A stretch of 64,000 bases of DNA from Octopus vulgaris (lineage: Eukaryota): contig OX597832.1 of NCBI GenBank assembly GCA_951406725.2, positions 36,518,001 through 36,582,000 on the forward strand, read 5' to 3'. The notes under the pieces were generated by a model that did no database searches, had not been told where the DNA came from, and worked only from the letters and a program-made list of their open reading frames with translations. This document shows positions 16,570-62,788 of this stretch, in pieces. Every line of letters begins with the position of its first letter. Within the stretch, counting starts at the first letter, position 1. Both the position numbers and the translations under genes were made by a program.

Positions 16570-19098
16570 TGTGTATATTAATATGTTTTGGCCAGATGCA
16601 TCTGCTGTCATCTGGTTAGCAAAGAGCGAGAGAAAAATAAGGAGAGATAAGTGTTAATAATGTGAGGTAAAAAGAAAGTTATTATGCTAAGATGCTGTCA
16701 AGTGGTTAGTTCAAAAGGGAAACAGAGAGAGAGAGAGAGAGAGAGATTGTGTGTGTGTGTGTGTGTGTGTGCTAGTACTGAGAGGCAAAGGAAAAGGTAT
16801 TGCTGTTACATTGTGTGGTTACTTAGTTGGAGAAAGAACTAGAAAGTAGAGAGAGATATAAACATGTTAAATGCAGGGGCGTGTGGTATAGTTGAAGTGA
16901 GAGGTAAAGAGAGAGAGTGTCAACTGAAAGGAGCCCGGGAATGGAGAGCAGTTTCATGAATTTATATGTAGTATAACAGAATATTGTGACAGGCAATAAG
17001 AATAAAAGTTTAGTTGTTTTTTACAGGTTTTAATGTTCAACCATTTCTATACGTTGTAGATATTTTGTAAGTAAAAGACAGGTTGGTGGTAACTAAGCTT
17101 TCATATAGGTTTATGGTAATAACCTTGAAGGTAAAAGATAGGAAAATAAAAAAAGGGCAAAGAACAAAGAAGTAAAGAGAAAGTAAAAGAAAGGAAAATG
17201 GAAACTATAGGAATCCAACAGTTGTTGTTTCAAGTTAAATCAAAGTGAAATAACCTTAGTAAATAGCTGTTATTGTTACTTTTACCTTTTTTACGTGTAG
17301 CAGCCCAAAGGCTGAGTCCATGCTGGGGCACCGCAATTATTTAGGTTTTTTTTAAAAGTATAATATGATAGATAAGAAGGTACATATAGGAAGAGATTGA
17401 GTGACGGCCCCTTCAATATTGCCTGGGTGAATTTTTACATCTTTTAGAATCAAAGGTTTCAGAAAAATATACAGTTTCATCATACTATTTTCAAAATAAT
17501 CGTAGAATTTCCACGGGTCCTATTAGTAATCAAATATTATAATTTGCTACTAATTCACTGGTGAAGATGCGTGGCTCAGTGGTTAGAGTGTCACTCACAA
17601 TCATGAGGTAGTGACTTAGATTCCTGGACCTGACTCTGTGTTGTGGTCTTGAGTAACGTCACTGGTGCCAAGCTGTATGCATGGGCATCTGCTGGTCTTC
17701 CACAAACAACCTACCCAGACTTGTGCCTCAGAGGGTAACTTTCTAGGTGCAATCCCATGGTCATTCATGACCAAAACAGTTCTTTACCCTTTTTACTAAT
17801 TCACCAATATAGAATGTTTGAAGCATCTCTCATATTTGGTAAACTCCTTGCTACAATTCTCCACAAAGCCATTTTTTAAAAATTAATCTTCTACTGCACT
17901 TTCACTCTCTTTTTTTTTTTTAGCTGACAATTTTAATTATCAGAATGTAATTAAAATTTATATTTATAAATATTTTCATCTTTTTCAAAATGGTAATATT
18001 AATTATAATTCTTTACGTTTCTTTATTTTCATTTCTGGTTGCTATTTTTCTTGCTCCTGTACTTATGTATACATATGTATGCACACGCATACATACATAC
18101 ATACAGTATATATATGTATATATGCATACATATCTATAGATACAGGTACACATATATACATATATCTGTACACACACATATCTATATACATGTACATAGA
18201 TATATATATAACAATAAATTAAATATATATGTAGTGAAAGTGCATGGCTTAGTGGTTAGGGTGTTGCATTCATGATTGCAAGATAGTGGGTTCGATTCCC
18301 AAATTTTATGGGTGAGTGTATTAAATTATATAAGGCACTAAAAGAGAATGATTCTCCCCAGATACAACAGTATATATATATATGCGGGAGTGTGAATGTG
18401 TGTATATATATATACACACACACACATATGTATACATGTATAGTTATATAAGTGTCTAAATATATATGTATTATATTACGTGTATGCATATAAACACCTA
18501 TGTCTATATGAGGATGAAGTTACGTACATACACATATTTGTGTGTGTGTATGTGCATGTATGTATACATGTTTGTGTGTGTATGTATGTAGACATGAACG
18601 CAGGAGGTTTATGTCTATGTATTGTGAGAATATGGTTGTGTGTATTTTTTATCTTTTCTTTTTTTTCTTTTCCTATCTATTAGAGTAACTTCCCTTTTAT
18701 TCACCGGTCTTTCATAGCATCTGTTGCCATTAATAGCCGGCAAAAATGCATCGTAGCTCTTCGCTCTGACATTCGAAACTCCGAGTACTATAATGACAAC
18801 TTTTTACTGTTTGTTATAAATTATAATATATATAAATATCATCTATTTATCTAATATCAAAGTCTCATTTTTTTGTTGTTACTTTTTATTATCAAATTAC
18901 CTCCTGTACGCCTGGAGCATTCTCTCTAAGAGGCTAGTACAGACTGTATTGAATAGTTGCTATTAATCGGTTGAGGACTTTCTCCCACAGAAGAATCTAA
19001 TATAGATCCTTACATAATACTGTTCTATATTCAAGAGATGAGGAATTATGTACATTATTTACAATTGACAGATATTTGTCCTCATCTTGTTTGTTGTT

Positions 19099-19144
19099 AA
19101 CACAACGTTTTGGCTGATATACCCTCCAGCCTTCATCGGGTGTC
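19099..19144 (-). ncRNA. Minimal type I hammerhead ribozyme motif, family 1 (mutated: U4C, G12A)
   Basis: Reads GACAC-CCGAUGA-A-GGCUG(GAGGGUAUAU)CAGCC-AAAA-CG-U-U-GUGUU. Stems I and II pair, and stem III is the palindromic ACGU. Confidence 0.78.
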
Positions 19145-19425
19145 TTGGGGAAATTTCGAACCTGGGTTCTCATTCCTAAGGTATTTTTTGATGTTATTAT
19201 TCAGGTCACTGCCTGGAATCGAACTCGAAATCTTGGGGTTAGTAGTCTGCACTCTTAACCACTACGTCATATTCCCATGGGCATATGACCTAGTGATTAA
19301 GAGCGCGGGCTACTAATTCCAAGATTCCGAGTTCAATTCCAGGCAGTGACCTGAACAACAACAACAACAGCAACAACATCGAAAAATACCTTAAGAATGA
19401 GAATCCAGGTTCAAAATTTTCTCAA

Positions 19426-19471
19426 GACACCTGTTGAAGGGTGGAGGGTATATCGGCCGAAACGTAGTGTA
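19426..19471 (+). ncRNA. Minimal type I hammerhead ribozyme motif, family 1 (mutated: A6U)
   Basis: Reads GACAC-CUGUUGA-A-GGGUG(GAGGGUAUAU)CGGCC-GAAA-CG-U-A-GUGUA. Confidence 0.75.
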
Positions 19472-19530
19472 TAACAACAAGCAAGATGAGGACAAATATT
19501 TGTCACTTGTAAATAATGTAGATCCTTACA

Positions 19531-20805
19531 ATATTGATTACTTAATGAAAAACATACCATCCAAGGAACTATAGTCTAAAAAACTACTGGAGAAAATTAC
19601 AGATCTTATTAAACATATGAGATAAAAGGCCTTCCATTACAACACTGAAGAGACTATCACAGAGAAGATACACCATGAAATTAAATCAAAGAGATTTCCT
19701 CCCAAAATCAAGGACTCAGAAGACTTCGAAACAGATCTACTGAAGCTTATAAACAAAACCAAATTTCATAAGTCCTTTAACACTTTACAACAGAAACTGA
19801 AAAAAGACATTAAAAACTAAAAAAAAAAACAGCACTTTTTTCTGATAAAACCAAGAACTTATAACTTGTAGACAACAGCACATACTCACAACTCCTACAT
19901 AACAATGTTATTAGTAATTTGACTAAAGCTAGACTGCAAGTTTATAACGACATTAATAAAAAAGCTAGTATCATTGCCACTAGGTTTAAATAAAAAAAAA
20001 AAATAGAAATCCCCCCCAAAAAAGAAGGCCTTTATAACTATTAAGGACCGTAAAAAGTTCCTAACTAATCCTCAATGCAGACTAATGAACCCTGCAAAAT
20101 CAGAAATTGGTATAATTTGTAAGGAAATTTTAATAAAAATCAATGTTAAAGTTAGAAGGGCAACTGATTTAGTAGAATGGTTCAATAGTACAGAAGTTAA
20201 CTGATTTAAAGCAATTAGAAATAAGAATAAAGCAAGATTTACAGAATTTGATATTGTAGATTTCTGTGCATCTATTTCTAGAAAACTGCTAGATAAAGCC
20301 CTCACTTTTGCAAGCGATTTCACAGAGATTAGTGAACAAGATAAGGATATAATCCTCCATGCTAGAAAGACCTTACTCTTCAACGAGAACACAGAGTGGG
20401 TCAAGACAGCAGACTCAGTGGGTTCTTTCGATGTGAGCATGGGGTCATATGGAGCAGGCATATATGATCTCATTGGGCTGTTCCTGCTTGACACGTTAGG
20501 AAAAGCTTTTCCTGGTGTATATTTCACTATTTATAGGAACGATGCTCTAGCTTCAGCTAAGAAGACCAATGGACCAGTGCAAGATCACTTAAGGAAGGAT
20601 ATTATCCATCTTTTGAAAACGTTTGATCTTAGCATAATGATACCAATCTGATGGTTGTCAATTTCCTTGACATATTTCTAGATTTACAAAAGAAAATTTA
20701 CAAATCCTATGGAAAGCCCAACAATAGACTTAATTATATTAATGTAGGTTCCTGCCAACCCACCCCCGTAGTGTTTAAGAATTTAGTTAAGAATATTAGT
20801 AAGGA
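19531..20805 (+). pseudogene. Decayed Penelope-like element reverse transcriptase ORF; its first codons lie at 19002-19014, before the nested insertion
   Basis: Frameshifted translation gives DPYNIDYLMKNIP...LLEKITDLIKHMR*KAF, FITIKDRK.F..NPQCRLMNPAKSEIG, FTEFDIVDFCASISRKLLDKALTFA, FDVSMGSYGA, IYRNDAL (YRDD decayed), VNFLDIFLDL and KPNNRLNYINVGS. These are motifs of PLE RTs common in marine invertebrates. The ORF is 3'-truncated. Confidence 0.85.
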
Positions 20806-41733: not shown

Positions 41734-41864
41734 CACTTACAGCACCTAGGTTTCCCAAGCAGTCACCCATCTAAGTACTAACTAGGCTCAACATTGCTTA
41801 ACTTCGGTGATTGGATGAGAACCGGTGCTTTCAACGTGATTTTCAACGTGATATGGCCGTAAGC
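41734..41864 (-). pseudogene. RNA5S: 5S rRNA pseudogene, full length, with a 12-bp internal duplication
   Basis: The reverse complement reads GCTTACGGCCATATCACGTTGAAA...GCACCGGTTCTCATCCAATCACCGAAGTTAAGCAATGTTGAGCCTAGTTAGTACTTAGATGGGTGACTGCTTGGGAAACCTAGGTGCTGTAAG, the metazoan 5S pattern with many CpG-type transitions. TTTCAACGTGAT is duplicated at 41829-41852. Confidence 0.92.
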
Positions 41865-43518: not shown

Positions 43519-44747
43519 TCTCTGGAATTCTCAACCACTTCCTTAATAATCCGTGCACTGAGCAGGTAGTTCCAATGACTGAACAAACGGCATAGTCATT
43601 TATCAAAACTGATGCAACATTCACTTGAACATTATTCTATCCCTTGATGTAATCACATTTAATAGAAATGTTTTTCAGAGCATACCACCATTTCCATTCA
43701 GGTTACTGGTTTATGCAACTCTACTTTCCACCGAGCAGGCAAGTCTCAACAGAGCTTTGGTGACCAATTGTTGCATTTCACCTGTTTCTATGCTTAAATG
43801 CGACATGGTCATGCAAGGCTAGTGATAGGCGTATAAAATATTCATGAATAAAGCAGCCTTGAGGATAGTGGTTTGTTTTAACAGTGCGGAATCTATAACC
43901 ATATATAACAACTATATATGAATAGCTGGTGACGTTTAGTTGGTTGTTTAGTTGGCTTAGTGCCAGTCTTGTTACAATTGAAGTGTTGCTGCTTCAGATT
44001 CTGCTACCAGTTGTACTTGTGTTCTTGATATTTCTCATTGACTCAGTCCAGCTAACAGCAAATCGGTCCCATGGTGTGGTGCAATTACTGCTGCAAATAG
44101 TGTACAAAGTGTATTGAGGGAAACATCTGTATCATCCACAAATGCAATAAGTGCACTACTGTGATATGTGTATGTGTGCATGTATGTGTACATATTGACG
44201 TGTCTCTGTGTGTGTATATATGTATATATATATATGATTAGCAGACGTTACAGTGACTCAAGTGCTGAAAGTTTCATGTGTTAGTACTTATCAAACTAGC
44301 TTCCAATTAGGTGGGTTTTCCATTTTTAAGGACCCTATTCCATTTTCCTGCTTATATTACCAAACCCATGTGTGTGTCATTGACTGGTATAGTAAAACTG
44401 CTACAAATATAAACACAAACACCAGCAATCAATACTGTTGTGAATCTATGCATCTTTGTGTGCCTCTGCTGTCGATAATGTCAAATGTATTTGTCTTACT
44501 TCAATGTATTGGAAACGATAATGAAATGAAATGAAAGTATCAACATTGTCATTGCATCATCGTCGTCATCTCTTAAATACTTTGTATCTTGAAAACTTGT
44601 CATTCCTTAGTTTAGCTCCTTTTCAGTTTCACTCCCTGGGCATTGTACAGCCTGGGGCTCAGAGCACAATACCAGTGGGATTGAAATGAAAACCGAAAAA
44701 CATGCCGTCCCCTCAAAATATGGGTAGACAAACATGGCAAATCTGTG

Positions 44748-45143
44748 ATACGAGGAGGTTTTGATAAATCGAGTATAGCTGATCATGTATGGGAAAATGG
44801 AGACCAGCTCCCCGATGAGGGATGAAGTTAAAATAATAGACAGAGAACACCACTGGAAATTACGAAACCTAAAAGAAGCAGCACATATGCTAGGACACAA
44901 CAACCTCCTAAGCAGACCGAGTGCAGATGTGAGCAGCATATGGGAACCGGTATTAAGGAAGAATAGGAAAATATTAGATTTATAAGCCCTAAAATTCACT
45001 CCATAATTGCCCACGGGTATATGGCGCAGTTCGAAATTTCGCCCAAGACACCTGATGAAGGCTGGAGGGTATATCAGCCGAAACATGTTAACAACAAATA
45101 AGATGAGGATAAATATCCGTCAAGTGTGAATAATGTAAATAAT
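44748..45143 (+). mobile_element. 5'-truncated Penelope/Poseidon-type PLE: GIY-YIG endonuclease C-terminus plus internally deleted pLTR with hammerhead
   Basis: Reads RGGFDKSSIADHVWENGD..(frameshift)..DEVKIIDREHHWKLRNLKEAAHMLGHNNLLSR with stop at 44985. This is followed by CCCACGGGTATATGGCGCAG|TTCGAAATTT and the same hammerhead and tail as the 19-kb and 62-kb elements. Confidence 0.82.
45047..45089 (+). ncRNA. Hammerhead motif, family 1 (intact CUGAUGA and GAAA; short deletion at the cleavage site and stem I)
   Basis: Reads GACAC-CUGAUGA-A-GGCUG(GAGGGUAUAU)CAGCC-GAAA-CAUGUU. Confidence 0.75.
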
Positions 45144-46368
45144 GAATATCTGTCTGTGTTTGGACTGACCTTGCGCGGAGGTGACTCAGACTCCTGCTTC
45201 CATCGCTCTTCATACACATGCATTTCAACACATACACACCATTCTACACACACATGTACTTGTTTACTCACACACATACACATGCATACTCCCCTAAATA
45301 TACACACATTCACGTAATCTTCGATGCTTTCCCACCCATGCCACATGATCTCACCCATACAACTTCAGTCATGTTACTGATGTCTCCCTTTCCACCAACC
45401 ATTTCCTTCTGATCAATTCAACATGTGAAACCATTAATCCAGGCGTTTTTTTCTTTCTTTTCTCTGTTGTCTTCTTCCCTCATTCCTTTCTGTAGAAAAG
45501 CCTAGGCTCAAAAACATCAAAGACTCTTTCAATTTCCCTGAGCATCCAGCTAACAGACCTGCTTGGTGTTTCCTTACCTGTCCTTGTCTTCTGTTCTTTT
45601 GTTCTTTTTGCATAAGTTTGAACCATACACACTGACACACACACACACATCTCGTCCAACCCATGCTAGCATAGGAGACGGATGTTAAACGATGATGATG
45701 ATGATGATATATATTTAAATTTAAGAAGGGATGGTATTATTAAAATACCATCACATGTGGCAAGCGAGTTATCAGCCATACAGGCAAATTAATTAAATAT
45801 ATTCATACAATATAAAATAATGTATGTATGTGTGTGTGTGTGTGTGTGTATACATGAGCACCTGCATTGCTAAAAATAAAAGTCAAAAATACTTCTGTAT
45901 CACAGAATAGTCACAAATCTACTACAGGTATGGTTGTAAAAAATCCCAGTGAACATAAAAGAACCGTCTTCCCTCTGCTATTCCTGGTCAACTTGGATCT
46001 GGTTTCGAACTTGGCATCAAATAGTTACCTGTTTCTCTTCAGCCAAAGTCTGCCAGCTTCCCTTCTACTGAAATTTCCCCACACCATGCCTGCAAAAGTT
46101 TGTTTGAAGAAGTCACCAAATACAAGTGAAATGCATGGAATTATTTATAAATAATTATGAGAAGGAAAATATTATTAGGAAAATACCGCCACGTGTGGCA
46201 AGAGAGTTTATCAGCCGTACAGGCAAATTAATGGAATATATGTACTTTATATATATATACTTTATAAAAATATTTCAATTATACCGTAAATGGTCGTTTT
46301 ACATAGTGAACACTACTTGGTAAAATTAATTAATTAATTTTACCCTTTATTATTGACAATATATATAT

Positions 46369-49449: not shown

Positions 49450-52400
49450 TCGACTAATTTTTCACATTCTCGTTTAAACTCGGTTGTGTAAATATTTGCG
49501 GCCTGGGGTTGTATTGGAAGCAAGGCTACCTCCTTTAAAGACCTTGGGTCACATCGTTTGGATGTAGTTGTAATTACTGAATCCAAACTGAGTGGGCTGC
49601 AGGCTTTTTCGCCCCTTCTAAATGGCTACGAGAAATACGTTTTTCCCTGTCGACCTGGAGGGGCTGGAGGAGTGGCAGTGCTGGTCAGAAAAAACCTGGA
49701 TTTAGAGATTAGAACTGTCTTTATAGATCCGGAAGGCAGGTTGGTCGTTTTGGATGTGACGCACAGCAGTGGTAAAGTGTTCAGGCTGGTCGTTGTCTAT
49801 GCTCCCTGCGAAGGAAAAGCCGGGCAGAAAGATTACTTCAAAAGCCTAGTGAATTTTCTTGGCACATCGAACACGTTAGTATTGCTAGTTGACTTCAACA
49901 TAATTTGCGATGCACGCGTAGATTATGTTGGCTCGAGAAAGAATAGGAGGGGATTACCTCACCTCAACGATCTGCTAAGTTGTTTCAAGTTGGCAGATCG
50001 ATTCAGACTGGACCACCCAGACACTCCAGTGTGGACCTGGGCAAGAAACGATGGGTCGTCCAGATGTTACATAGATAGAATCATAACTAGAAGGAAAGAT
50101 AAGAAAATACTTAGCTATCCACAACACCATATCATCAGCTACAGCGATCACAAATTAGTGACCTGTACACTCAACATAGATAACGTGTAGACGAGGTATC
50201 GGTTACTGGAAGCTAAACAAGTCACTATTGGACTGTGAAGCCTACAGGAATTGGATTAAACAATTAGTGATGAGGGCGTTAACCGGATCCATTATCAACA
50301 ACAAATGGTGGTACGCCCTGTAAAGAGCCATCAAATTTGAGTCAATTAGGTTTAGCAAAGAATTAGCTAGTGCTAGAAACAAAGTAGAAAAGGAACTAGT
50401 TAAGGCAATAGATGAGGCAATGAGGTCAGGCAGTACATTGAAAGTGTTAGCAGCGAGGTTGGCACTCGACCAACATCTCAAAGCTAAAGATGAAGGGTGC
50501 ATTGTCAGGGCTAAGATCCATGCAATGAGACAGGAAGGGATCAACACAGCCGGATGGGCCCGGGTGGTAGAAGGCCAGCGTGGCAACAACTCAACCATTC
50601 GATCTTTGACGGACCCAAATGGTCGATCAGTAAACGAACCCATGGAGATGTGCAAGGTGTTTCACGATCATTTCGCCCAGCTATTTGGGAGGAGCGGTGG
50701 ACTGGAGCGTGGGGAGAAGCTCGCAGACTTCCTAGCCGGTTTGCCGCGTCTATCGAGGCCGGATGCGGAATCTTGTGAGGCGCCGATCACAGCCAAGGAA
50801 GTCGAGGATGTGTTGGCAGACTGCGGCGGGGACAAATCGCCAGGACTCGATGGTCTGCCTTACGAACCCTATAGTAGCATGCCAGATTTGTTTGGGCACC
50901 TACTTGAATGCGTGTACACCAACTGGCAGCAGAACAGGAGAATTCCTAAGTCTGTGAGCTGAGGGGTGGTAGCGCTGTTAAGAAAGGACCCAAACAAGGG
51001 GGATTTAATTGATAATTTTCGGCCCATCACTCTGCTTAACTCAGAGTTGAAGATTTTGGCCAAGGTCTTAGCAAAAAGGTTGGTGCGGGTCGTGGGTGAA
51101 CTTGTTGGCGAGGCGCAAACTTGCGCCATCCCTGGAAGGACCATCCACGACAATCTCCACTTTCTACGCTATGCCTTAGAAAGGGTAAATAGGATTCCTG
51201 GCAAGGGTGGGGCTATGGTCCACTTGGACCAATCGAAAGCGTTCGATAGGGTGGACCATCAGTATCTGGCGGCGGTACTCGCGGCGGCTGGCTTCGGCCT
51301 GACCTTCCACGGATGGATCAATGCTTTATACAGCAACATCGAATCCGTAGTTCAGGTGAACGGTTTCTTTTCGGAGCCGTTCCGCATTGAACGTTCAGTA
51401 CGTTAAGGGTGTCCTCTCTCCCCGCTTCTCTACGTTTTGGCCCTCGAGCTGTTGCTGAGGAGGTTGGAAACTATGAGGGGCACTCCGCAAGATCTATGGT
51501 GCGGAAAGTCAGCTACGGTGTATGCAGACGACATCACCGTCATTGTATCCCGAGTCGAGCACCTACAGTGGGTGAGTGAGGCCTCAAGGGACTACGAAGT
51601 GGTGGCAGGAGCGAAAGTCAACCGGGATAAGTCGATGTCTTCCGACAGCATCGTAGGACGTTGGATGGAAGGGCCAGTGAAAATGCTTGGAATCTGGTTA
51701 AGTCCAGATCTCCAGATAGAGAAGAATTGGAGCGAGGTGGCGAGAAAGGTGGCTCTCCTAACTCAGACCTGGTCTGAGCGGAAGCTGTCCTTGAAAGGGA
51801 GGGCGGAGGTTGCAGAGGTGTTTATCGCCTCTGTAATCACTTACCGCCTGACCGTCGTGCCTTGCCCCGATTCGTGGCTGAACAAACTGGAACGCATGCT
51901 CTTTCGCATTTTGTGGAGGGGCAGCAGACCTCTTGTAAGGCGCTCTATTTGCTGCCAAAACCCGCTGAAGGGTGGGTTAGGGATGCCGTGGCTAAAAATG
52001 CGTAGACATGCGCTCAGGCTTAGGCACCTCTGACTTTACCTGGACGGTGAGCAGGTGTGGTCTCCGTTCGTCAGGCTGTTATTTCCACAGTTCACATCGT
52101 TTACCAAACTGAACCCATGGATCAAGTGTAGACCGAGGTTGGGCGTGTGACATGTAGAGTGCCATCAGGCACTCATGCTTCTCTCCAAGTTGGGCAACGC
52201 CGGTGGCGGGGGTACTACCTCGTTCTTCTATAGAGGGTTAGTAGAGTTTAAGTGTGACGACGTCCTGGGAGAAACCCTGGGCTTCGACGAAAATCAACTG
52301 GCCAGCCTGTTCCAAAGAACATTCGGTCCGGGGCCTATGGATAATTACCAAAAGTCCCTGGCTTGGCAATGTTACAGAGGAGCTTTACTGGTTCGACATG

Positions 52401-61778: not shown

Positions 61779-61905
61779 GGAGCGTAAAAGGGATGTTATC
61801 CTGGCAGATACTGTATTATCTCCCAGATTGGTTTTGATGCCAGCTAATCACTGCGGTCCAATATATAGTACTCAAGCTTAGAGTTACTGGTACTGGTAAA
61901 CTTCA

Positions 61906-62325
61906 TTATTTGCAATGGACAGATAGTGTCCTCACTTTGTTATTAGCACAACTTTTTGGTTGATGTACTTTCCAGCTTTCATCTGGTGTTCTGATAGAAT
62001 TCCAAACCCAACCCTTTTTTTGACTAATGGAGTACTCTGTTCTCATTCCTAAGGTATTCTGTTTTGCAGTTGTTTTTTTTTTTCTGTTGATATTAAGTCC
62101 CAGGCAGGGACTTGGGAAATAATATCAACAGAAAAAAATAATGTCAGCAAAAAAAAAAACCTTAGGAATGAGAACAGAGTACCCCCATTATTCAAAGGCG
62201 TCCGAAATTACACCAGAACACCTGATGAATGCTGGAGAGCACATTAGCCAAAACATTGTGGTAACAACAAACAAGGTGAGGACATTGTAAATAATGTAAT
62301 AATTCCTCATCTCAAAAATATAGAT
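61906..62325. mobile_element. Second fold-back PLE-derived element (related subfamily) with a hammerhead motif in each arm, 12-bp TSD
   Basis: Arms are inverted around AAGTCCC-AGGCA-GGGACTT (62095-62113). TGGTAAACTTCA is repeated at 61894-61905 and 62326-62337. It shares CCTTAGGAATGAGAAC, the hammerhead and the AATTCCTCATCTC tail with 19015-19518. Confidence 0.85.
62217..62262 (+). ncRNA. Hammerhead motif, family 1 (CpG-decayed); a more degenerate inverted copy lies at 61945-61990
   Basis: Reads AACAC-CUGAUGA-A-UGCUG(GAGAGCACAU)UAGCC-AAAA-CA-U-U-GUGGU. Confidence 0.65.
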
Positions 62326-62788
62326 TGGTAAACTTCACTCATTGGGTACATGTATCTATAGTTAGTATATATATATATATATATATATATAGATATAATC
62401 GTCATCATTTAACACCCATGCTAGCATATATATGTATATATATATTGTGTGTTTTTGATATTTTGTAAGAGTCATAGAGGTTGGTGGGAAAAGTTGAAGT
62501 TATATTTGTAGGATGTAAACATTTATAATGTTTATAAAACTACAGATTGTATGGTTCATAGAATGGCCAGTTAAGGGCTGGAGATAAATAGCCAGACGTA
62601 TTATATAGATGACTTATCTTTGCTCTGTGTGTGTGTTAATCTATGACATAATCTGGCTACAGATGTGTTAGATGTCATTACCCATGTCACTATAGACTGC
62701 TATGCTCCATGAACTTGACCACTACATTATACAAAGTGCTGCTAGAACTATTGATATATACAACTATTGCTATATATGTGTGTATGTA

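Follow-up and report, generated by a model that had tools for sequence, protein, structure and literature searches.

A tRNA-like head as a candidate Pol III promoter in the terminal repeat of an abundant Octopus vulgaris retrotransposon of the Penelope/Poseidon type

The DNA between positions 44698 and about 45155 of the window (the whole analysed stretch of 64,000 nucleotides from Octopus vulgaris contig OX597832.1) is what decay has left of the 3' end of a Penelope/Poseidon-type retrotransposon present in many copies, and its junction between the end of an endonuclease (EN) and a tRNA-like head is a trait of the whole family. Judged from sequence, the head in the terminal repeat (pLTR) is probably an internal Pol III promoter for the short copies of the repeat. 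We regard it as rather unlikely that the further conditions also hold together, namely that an autonomous coding element would be expressed as a ~2.9-kb Pol III mRNA from a captured tRNA promoter, on a strand purged of terminators and with its repeat as its SINE, and that this design would have arisen more than once (as locus L351 might indicate).

The window copy begins on the forward strand with a 5'-truncated, frameshifted C-terminal end of the GIY-YIG endonuclease of a Penelope-like element (PLE; 44698..44985), which ends at the TAA at 44983-44985 and matches residues 756-846 of protein P0008 in two frames (tblastn, E 7e-21), with the frameshift near 44812. The sequence-only reading had identified the endonuclease C-terminus, and rightly so; the fragment starts at 44698 and not at 44748, however, and the GIY-YIG core itself is absent. 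Downstream on the same strand the alignment places a 29-nt spacer (44986..45014), the first 16 nt of the head with the start of the A box (45015..45030) and, after a hammerhead-like motif, the 3' part of the pLTR (45090..45155). Position +1 of the tRNA-like head falls on the G at 45015, which corresponds to 19279 in the palindrome at 19 kb, and the preceding CCCAC is leader; the last ~12 nt of the spacer are an imperfect mirror of the head start and make the leader hairpin-forming, according to the alignment and the fold of copy L444. The spacer as a whole (44986-45014) looks like a mirror image, since decayed, of about the first 20 bases of the head, and may be a fossil of the head-to-head junction by which the coding family gained its head. 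Compared with the family majority, to which it is 94% identical over 333 nt of nucleotide alignment, the window copy lacks 128 nt, which held the remainder of the head together with the (AAT)n tract and the ATG, and this deletion is private to it; its sixteen head bases abut the hammerhead-bearing segment. This agrees with what had been read from the letters, that CCCACGGGTATATGGCGCAG (at 45010, 24 nt after the TAA, where about 25 nt had been given) is joined directly to TCGAAATTT..CCAAGACACCTGATGAAGGCTG, the same unit with its middle deleted. The likeness of CCCACGGG at 45010 to the palindrome head was also borne out, at 15/20 positions to the right arm (19274-19293) and 16/20 to the left arm at 19 kb; positions 45029-45143 are 89% identical to the left and 82% to the right of these arms, and 79% to the arm at 62 kb. 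No convincing target duplication was seen around the window copy (best 6 bp).

The junction is found throughout the family. After 10 loci without an EN end and 2 duplicates had been removed from the 59 examined, the head followed the EN stop in 46 of the 47 distinct copies (31 full, 15 partial, 1 none). The first 29 loci had been picked with a query holding 16 head bases; among the copies chosen by protein alone, all 18 distinct ones have the head (13 full, 5 partial). Contigs from four other species labels contain pieces bridging the same junction. The idea that the junction at 45010 arose once only, when an independent SINE inserted or recombined beside a PLE fragment, has nothing beyond the deletion in the window copy in its favour and is refuted by these counts; its probability is practically negligible. 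The head thus belongs to the family's own pLTR, as had been supposed, yet it is not merely a 3'UTR part, as in tandem copies it stands upstream of the ORF start codon. As to whether an intact head always lies between stop and hammerhead, the head is complete in 31 of the 47 EN-end copies, and 22 of the 47 have a match to a strict pattern for the hammerhead core in the 520 nt downstream.

The order of the unit is EN stop, 29-nt spacer, 73-nt head, (AAT)n, ATG, hammerhead-like core, tail and ORF body. The tandem junctions of L156 and L159 carry the parts from EN end to ORF body in a single run, the tail of L091 runs on into the ORF body, and the reading frame that passes through the hammerhead matches P0008 at its N-terminus (39%, E 8e-36). 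Promoters of PLEs have been located between the ORF stop and the next ORF start (PMC2377424; PMC8557442), and the head occupies this promoter position, because in tandems it lies between the stop of one ORF and the start of the next. It is identical to genomic tRNA-Thr(AGT) and tRNA-Arg(TCG) at 45-46 of 75 positions (about 61%), a comparison in which about six isotypes were sampled and the parent tRNA is thus not fixed. The score of 57.5 compares with 28 +/- 4.8 for shuffled sequences (maximum 53.5 of 300 shuffles). The A- and B-box consensus, called with strings that we take to represent these boxes, is retained in the heads of both subfamilies. The acceptor stem is broken, a cloverleaf is not predicted and the fold is no better than that of shuffles (z +1.6). 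Stalling on a stable tRNA fold was also weighed and given little or no credit. The box positions are conserved no better than the remaining head in 122 copies, which is expected after insertion and uninformative. Rfam detected neither a tRNA nor a hammerhead in the window or in 6 loci, and ARAGORN at its default found no tRNA in them; with a relaxed threshold it detected the head in 4 of 30 loci. As a separate observation, three of 15 tail-less heads (L450, L476, L488) are followed after the (AAT)n tract by one and the same other repeat, which may be another element with the tract as its target or a chimeric family that makes use of the head.

In the family, the hammerhead motif reads GACAC-CTGATGA-stem II-GAAACGTT-GTGTT, with GTT present as AACGTTGTGTTA in 44 of 86 pattern-anchored copies. 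The minimal PLE hammerhead has been described as a CUGANGA and GAAA core with helix II, a short helix I and a palindromic 15.2-16.2 part, and no helix III (PMC4209133). The family motif is hammerhead-like and fits such a minimal type I candidate ribozyme, whereas the window copy does not. As the stretch also encodes the ORF N-terminus in tandem copies, conservation of the hammerhead is confounded. A hammerhead had been proposed downstream of the head start, and the motif pattern and the tandem copies do place one at 45047..45089 (forward strand), with the 5' strand of stem I (GACAC), CTGATGA at 45052-58, stem II and GAAA at 45080-83. It continues as GAAAC-ATGTT, without GTT, so the cleavage triplet has been lost. 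The private deletion together with the broken hammerhead makes the window copy a dead one.

Two palindromes in the window were suggested to be pLTR-only products of this element. The one at 19003..19530 is a head-to-head pLTR-only insertion of the same subfamily as the window copy; its centre is at the head start (19274-19281), 12 bp of target DNA are duplicated at its ends (19003-19014 and 19519-19530), and the left arm alone has an extra tail. The suggestion stands for this palindrome and not for that at 61894..62337, likewise a head-to-head pLTR-only insertion with a 12-bp target duplication (61894-61905 and 62326-62337), which is centred in the 3' end of the head and belongs to a sister subfamily, B, that has a different linker and EN-linked copies of its own (e.g. 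L236, L243, L259). The 19-kb palindrome is inserted into or beside a decayed, A-rich, coding-looking stretch (19530-20500, forward strand) to which none of five proteins tried gave a match. The window also holds a 5S rRNA-like copy with a 12-nt internal duplication (41734-41864, reverse strand, 84 bits) and a decayed LINE-type reverse transcriptase fragment (50618-51424, forward strand).

The first look at the 2.8-Gb genome gave 5,746 candidates for the window region. Exact matches to a 43-nt hammerhead stretch number 1,170 in the genome (0 for the reversed control), and 5 of 134 independently picked arms contain it unchanged, which gives a rough estimate of 31,000 arms. Repeat-only copies outnumber ORF-bearing ones by about 8 to 1, and the median divergence from the ORF majority is 6% (range 3-15%, n=128 copies). 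Pieces of a single ORF, with the reverse transcriptase (RT) followed by a C-terminal GIY-YIG endonuclease, are found in natural copies, and the open frame of the alignment majority has 816 codons. No intact ORF was found among 58 protein hits, which were top candidates only, and since the longest stop-free match among them is 569 aa, the family is probably no longer active. The window element had been proposed as the probable autonomous partner; it is instead a dead fragment of a family in which no intact ORF was found.

The family protein was scored by Pfam as RVT_1 only, and PDB gave no close relative, with two weak hits to group II intron-like RTs. YKG replaces YIG in the endonuclease, as it does in P0008, and the translations of L011, L017 and L027 have CSC between the half-motifs, downstream histidines and PADKG; a CX2-5CxxC linker motif is absent from the last 188 aa of L263. 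Penelope/Poseidon elements are characterised by CCHH in EN, DKG and no CX2-5CxxC linker (PMC8557442), and the C-terminal EN, the CCHH, the DKG and the absence of the zinc-finger linker fit that clade. In a quick RT tree of two copies and 38 of the 120 homologues listed (40 rows), built without labelled Neptune, Nematis, Naiad or Hydra references, the copies group with P0001, P0003, P0004 and P0006 (SH-aLRT 100). Over 569 aa, L263 and the Anolis protein P0043 share 37% identity; we infer P0043 to be the PAc protein, for which a search of the supplement gave no confirmation. Tandem and inverted pLTRs, 5' truncation and a one-sided tail are all present in family copies. A genome search for other PLE families returned the family of the window copy at 30 of 30 loci, and L286 is a decayed member of it.

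The positions at which copies begin bear on the promoter reading. In a head-anchored sample of 70 of 888 exact matches (2 listed places were left out because they overlapped loci already sampled; two loci overlap the hammerhead-anchored sample and two are arms of one insertion), 61 of the 5' ends fall within -8 to +15 of the head start, the rest being 6 EN-linked copies, 2 that stop in the spacer and 1 linked to EN via a short inversion. Sorted by junction, 6 are EN-linked, 15 meet a mirror (among them the one with the short inversion) and 49 meet other sequence; 47 of these 49 start between -8 and +15, and 12 at -7, the modal end. One to eight leader bases are kept in 27 of the 49, as expected of a start just before +1. 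The hammerhead tail lies within 766 nt in 55 of the 70 copies. The hammerhead-anchored sample (86 of the first 100 exact matches listed, all on contig 1) consists mostly of single or inverted arms. Of its 81 head-bearing arms, 19 end within the head. The other 62 extend at least to +13; 10 of them continue into EN and 52 stop there, 21 meeting a head mirror (both palindrome arms counted) and 31 other sequence. Among 30 loci of subfamily B, 13 reach the head start, where 10 stop and 3 are EN-linked. Seven ORF-linked copies reach the head; three continue into an upstream EN and four stop (L199 and L192 at -2, L209 at -7, L167 at +4). L199 is preceded by unrelated DNA and spans the ORF to the next head.

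The same boundary coincides with a hairpin of leader and head start, so fold-back could also create the pile-up of 5' ends. The core of the hairpin has -8.8 kcal/mol; in L444, where private pairs add to it, the value is -15, and no other 34-nt window between -450 and +60 is stronger. The modal end at -7, past the hairpin, and the mostly non-mirror junctions favour the end of a template, as an argument and not as proof. A second fold-back hotspot was observed inside the head, at about +15 joined to +32 via a short inverted repeat (L100, L142, L144, L148, L150).

The ORF was also searched for Pol III terminators in a test planned in advance. In the ORF majority of 20 aligned loci, no sense TTTT was found against 3.7 expected from synonymous shuffles (2,448 nt, P 0.0105); the deficit is modest, ranking 5th of 256 4-mers, and GGGG is likewise absent (1.0 expected). 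A TTTT near position 51 of the ORF majority was rejected as an alignment artefact. In 65 natural open stretches, which are mutually non-independent, TTTT occurs 21 times against 62 expected. The controls gave 25 against 23.6 for four LINE-type families and 152 against 149 for 30 other PLE families from metagenome contigs, and spacers of other PLEs hold up to 11 TTTT. RNA reads (three runs of one study under another species label, with equal depth on both strands) have no pile-up of starts and are uninformative about Pol III transcription.

An A/B-box layout was found in one other PLE. Of 79 metagenome loci, 41 had the EN end with downstream DNA, and the boxes are absent from 40 of these ends. 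In the remaining locus, L351 (2821-2990), A and B boxes and then AAT repeats stand between stop and hammerhead, a pattern that arose in 0 of 12,300 shuffles. L351 is an intact perfect tandem with a 2,791-bp unit, 38% identical to P0008 and unrelated at the DNA level, and is possibly an independent case of the layout. Its head is borderline against the sampled tRNAs (43.5, shuffled maximum 44.5); TTTT occurs twice per unit against 4.2 expected (P 0.16), both just past the hammerhead.

If the head is a Pol III promoter, each intact repeat would be a template on which transcription starts a few bases before the head. The element protein would nick both strands and copy repeat RNAs from the tail, and the two cDNAs would run out at the 5' end of the RNA and be joined head-to-head, often by snap-back on the leader hairpin. 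Repeat-only copies would then behave as SINEs of their own parent, which would explain their excess over ORF-bearing copies. We take the retention of both boxes in two subfamilies, despite the broken acceptor stem, as favouring the promoter. A more speculative step is that the same promoter would also yield the coding RNA of ~2.9 kb. How an uncapped Pol III RNA would be translated is unexplained and counts against this step, and for the small-RNA-promoter elements TRIMp3 it has been argued that autonomous partners must use Pol II (PMC10886601).

Only at this last step does a division of labour depart from the proposed mechanism: Pol III would make the short repeat RNAs alone, and the coding RNA would be a Pol II read-through or promoter product. 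We see this as a real possibility that stays short of probable. It resolves the problem of cap and translation, the EN-linked arms need long templates of any origin, and the TTTT signal is weak; on the other hand, L199 starts 2 nt before the head and extends to the next one, and the ORF majority is free of the TTTT that other PLE spacers hold in numbers. The head could also be a passenger, an old tRNA-type SINE fixed in the pLTR of an element transcribed by Pol II, with the leader hairpin arresting RT or triggering fold-back, which we consider unlikely. That the strongest local hairpin coincides with the 5' boundary is what it would predict, and mirror junctions (15 of 70 head-anchored copies, 21 of 62 hammerhead-anchored arms), mirror-type bases further up in 11 of 25 copies with a 7-nt leader and other fold-backs centred near +15 inside the head are in line with it, as are the resemblance of head and (AAT)n to a simple SINE and the LINE-like, TATA-less internal promoter of Drosophila virilis Penelope (PMC2377424). 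The hairpin, however, would block at its 3' side, at about +10, whereas at the modal end of -7 it has already been read, and 49 of 70 junctions are not long mirrors. The passenger reading also does not predict the TTTT deficit, two subfamilies that differ in their linkers both retain the head, and inspection of the alignments by eye found no target duplication flanking it. It is very improbable that RNase P sets the 5' boundary by cutting a longer Pol II transcript at head +1, as might be suggested by the identity to tRNA-Arg(TCG) and tRNA-Thr(AGT): leader bases upstream of +1 are kept in 27 of 49 non-mirror junctions, and the head has neither an intact acceptor stem nor a predicted cloverleaf.

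In the usual view, SINEs are elements apart that parasitise LINEs, and autonomous retrotransposons are transcribed by Pol II; the promoter has been mapped for very few PLEs. If the promoter reading is true, a single sequence would serve a coding Penelope-like element as its promoter and would at the same time be a SINE with roughly 30,000 copies. PLEs could then give rise to SINEs directly, some of the SINEs annotated in such genomes would be PLE ends, and the element would offer a testable case of a coding RNA made by Pol III. Ohshima and Okada reportedly described tRNA-derived SINEs or retroposons of octopus in 1994, and the short copies may correspond to one of these. The SINE OR2 has been described as a CORE SINE (PMC4758252), and the available text of an octopus repeat annotation from 2026 lists numerous Penelope families and unclassified SINEs but no details of this kind (PMC13282606). 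No description of a tRNA-headed coding PLE was found in the paper searches; Repbase, Dfam or SINEBase may already hold the family.

Poseidon of Anolis carolinensis is similar in its single RT-EN ORF, with the hammerhead overlapping the ORF start inside the pLTR, in its tandem and inverted pLTRs and one-sided tail, and in junctions that often lie in ATT tracts; unlike in the octopus family, a tRNA-like head or Pol III promoter is unmentioned in the available text on it (PMC11167929; PMC8557442). The schistosome repeats Sm-alpha and Sj-alpha are also short repeats in which a hammerhead follows a Pol III-type promoter, but they are non-coding, carry an active canonical ribozyme and propagate in tandem (PMC6765202), whereas the octopus unit inserts head-to-head and forms the terminal repeat of an element with an ORF. 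Metazoan non-LTR retrozymes are likewise non-coding, pLTR-derived hammerhead units moved by PLEs; they differ in forming head-to-tail arrays and are said to be promoterless (bioRxiv 10.64898/2026.07.22.740005; PMC7761336). The main text of the retrozyme preprint mentions neither tRNA nor promoter (bioRxiv 10.64898/2026.07.22.740005), and in place of the head-to-tail tandem hammerhead units by which retrozymes are recognised, the 86 hammerhead-anchored loci have mostly single or inverted arms. In TRIMp3 elements (Cassandra, Helenus, Ajax) a Pol III promoter derived from a small RNA also lies within the terminal repeat; these are non-autonomous LTR elements whose autonomous partner is expected not to share the repeat (PMC10886601), whereas in the octopus PLE the autonomous family itself bears the head. 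A tRNA-derived SINE resembles the octopus unit in its tRNA-related head with A and B boxes; in contrast to a SINE that shares only the 3' tail with its LINE partner, the octopus unit is the entire pLTR of a coding family and inserts head-to-head.
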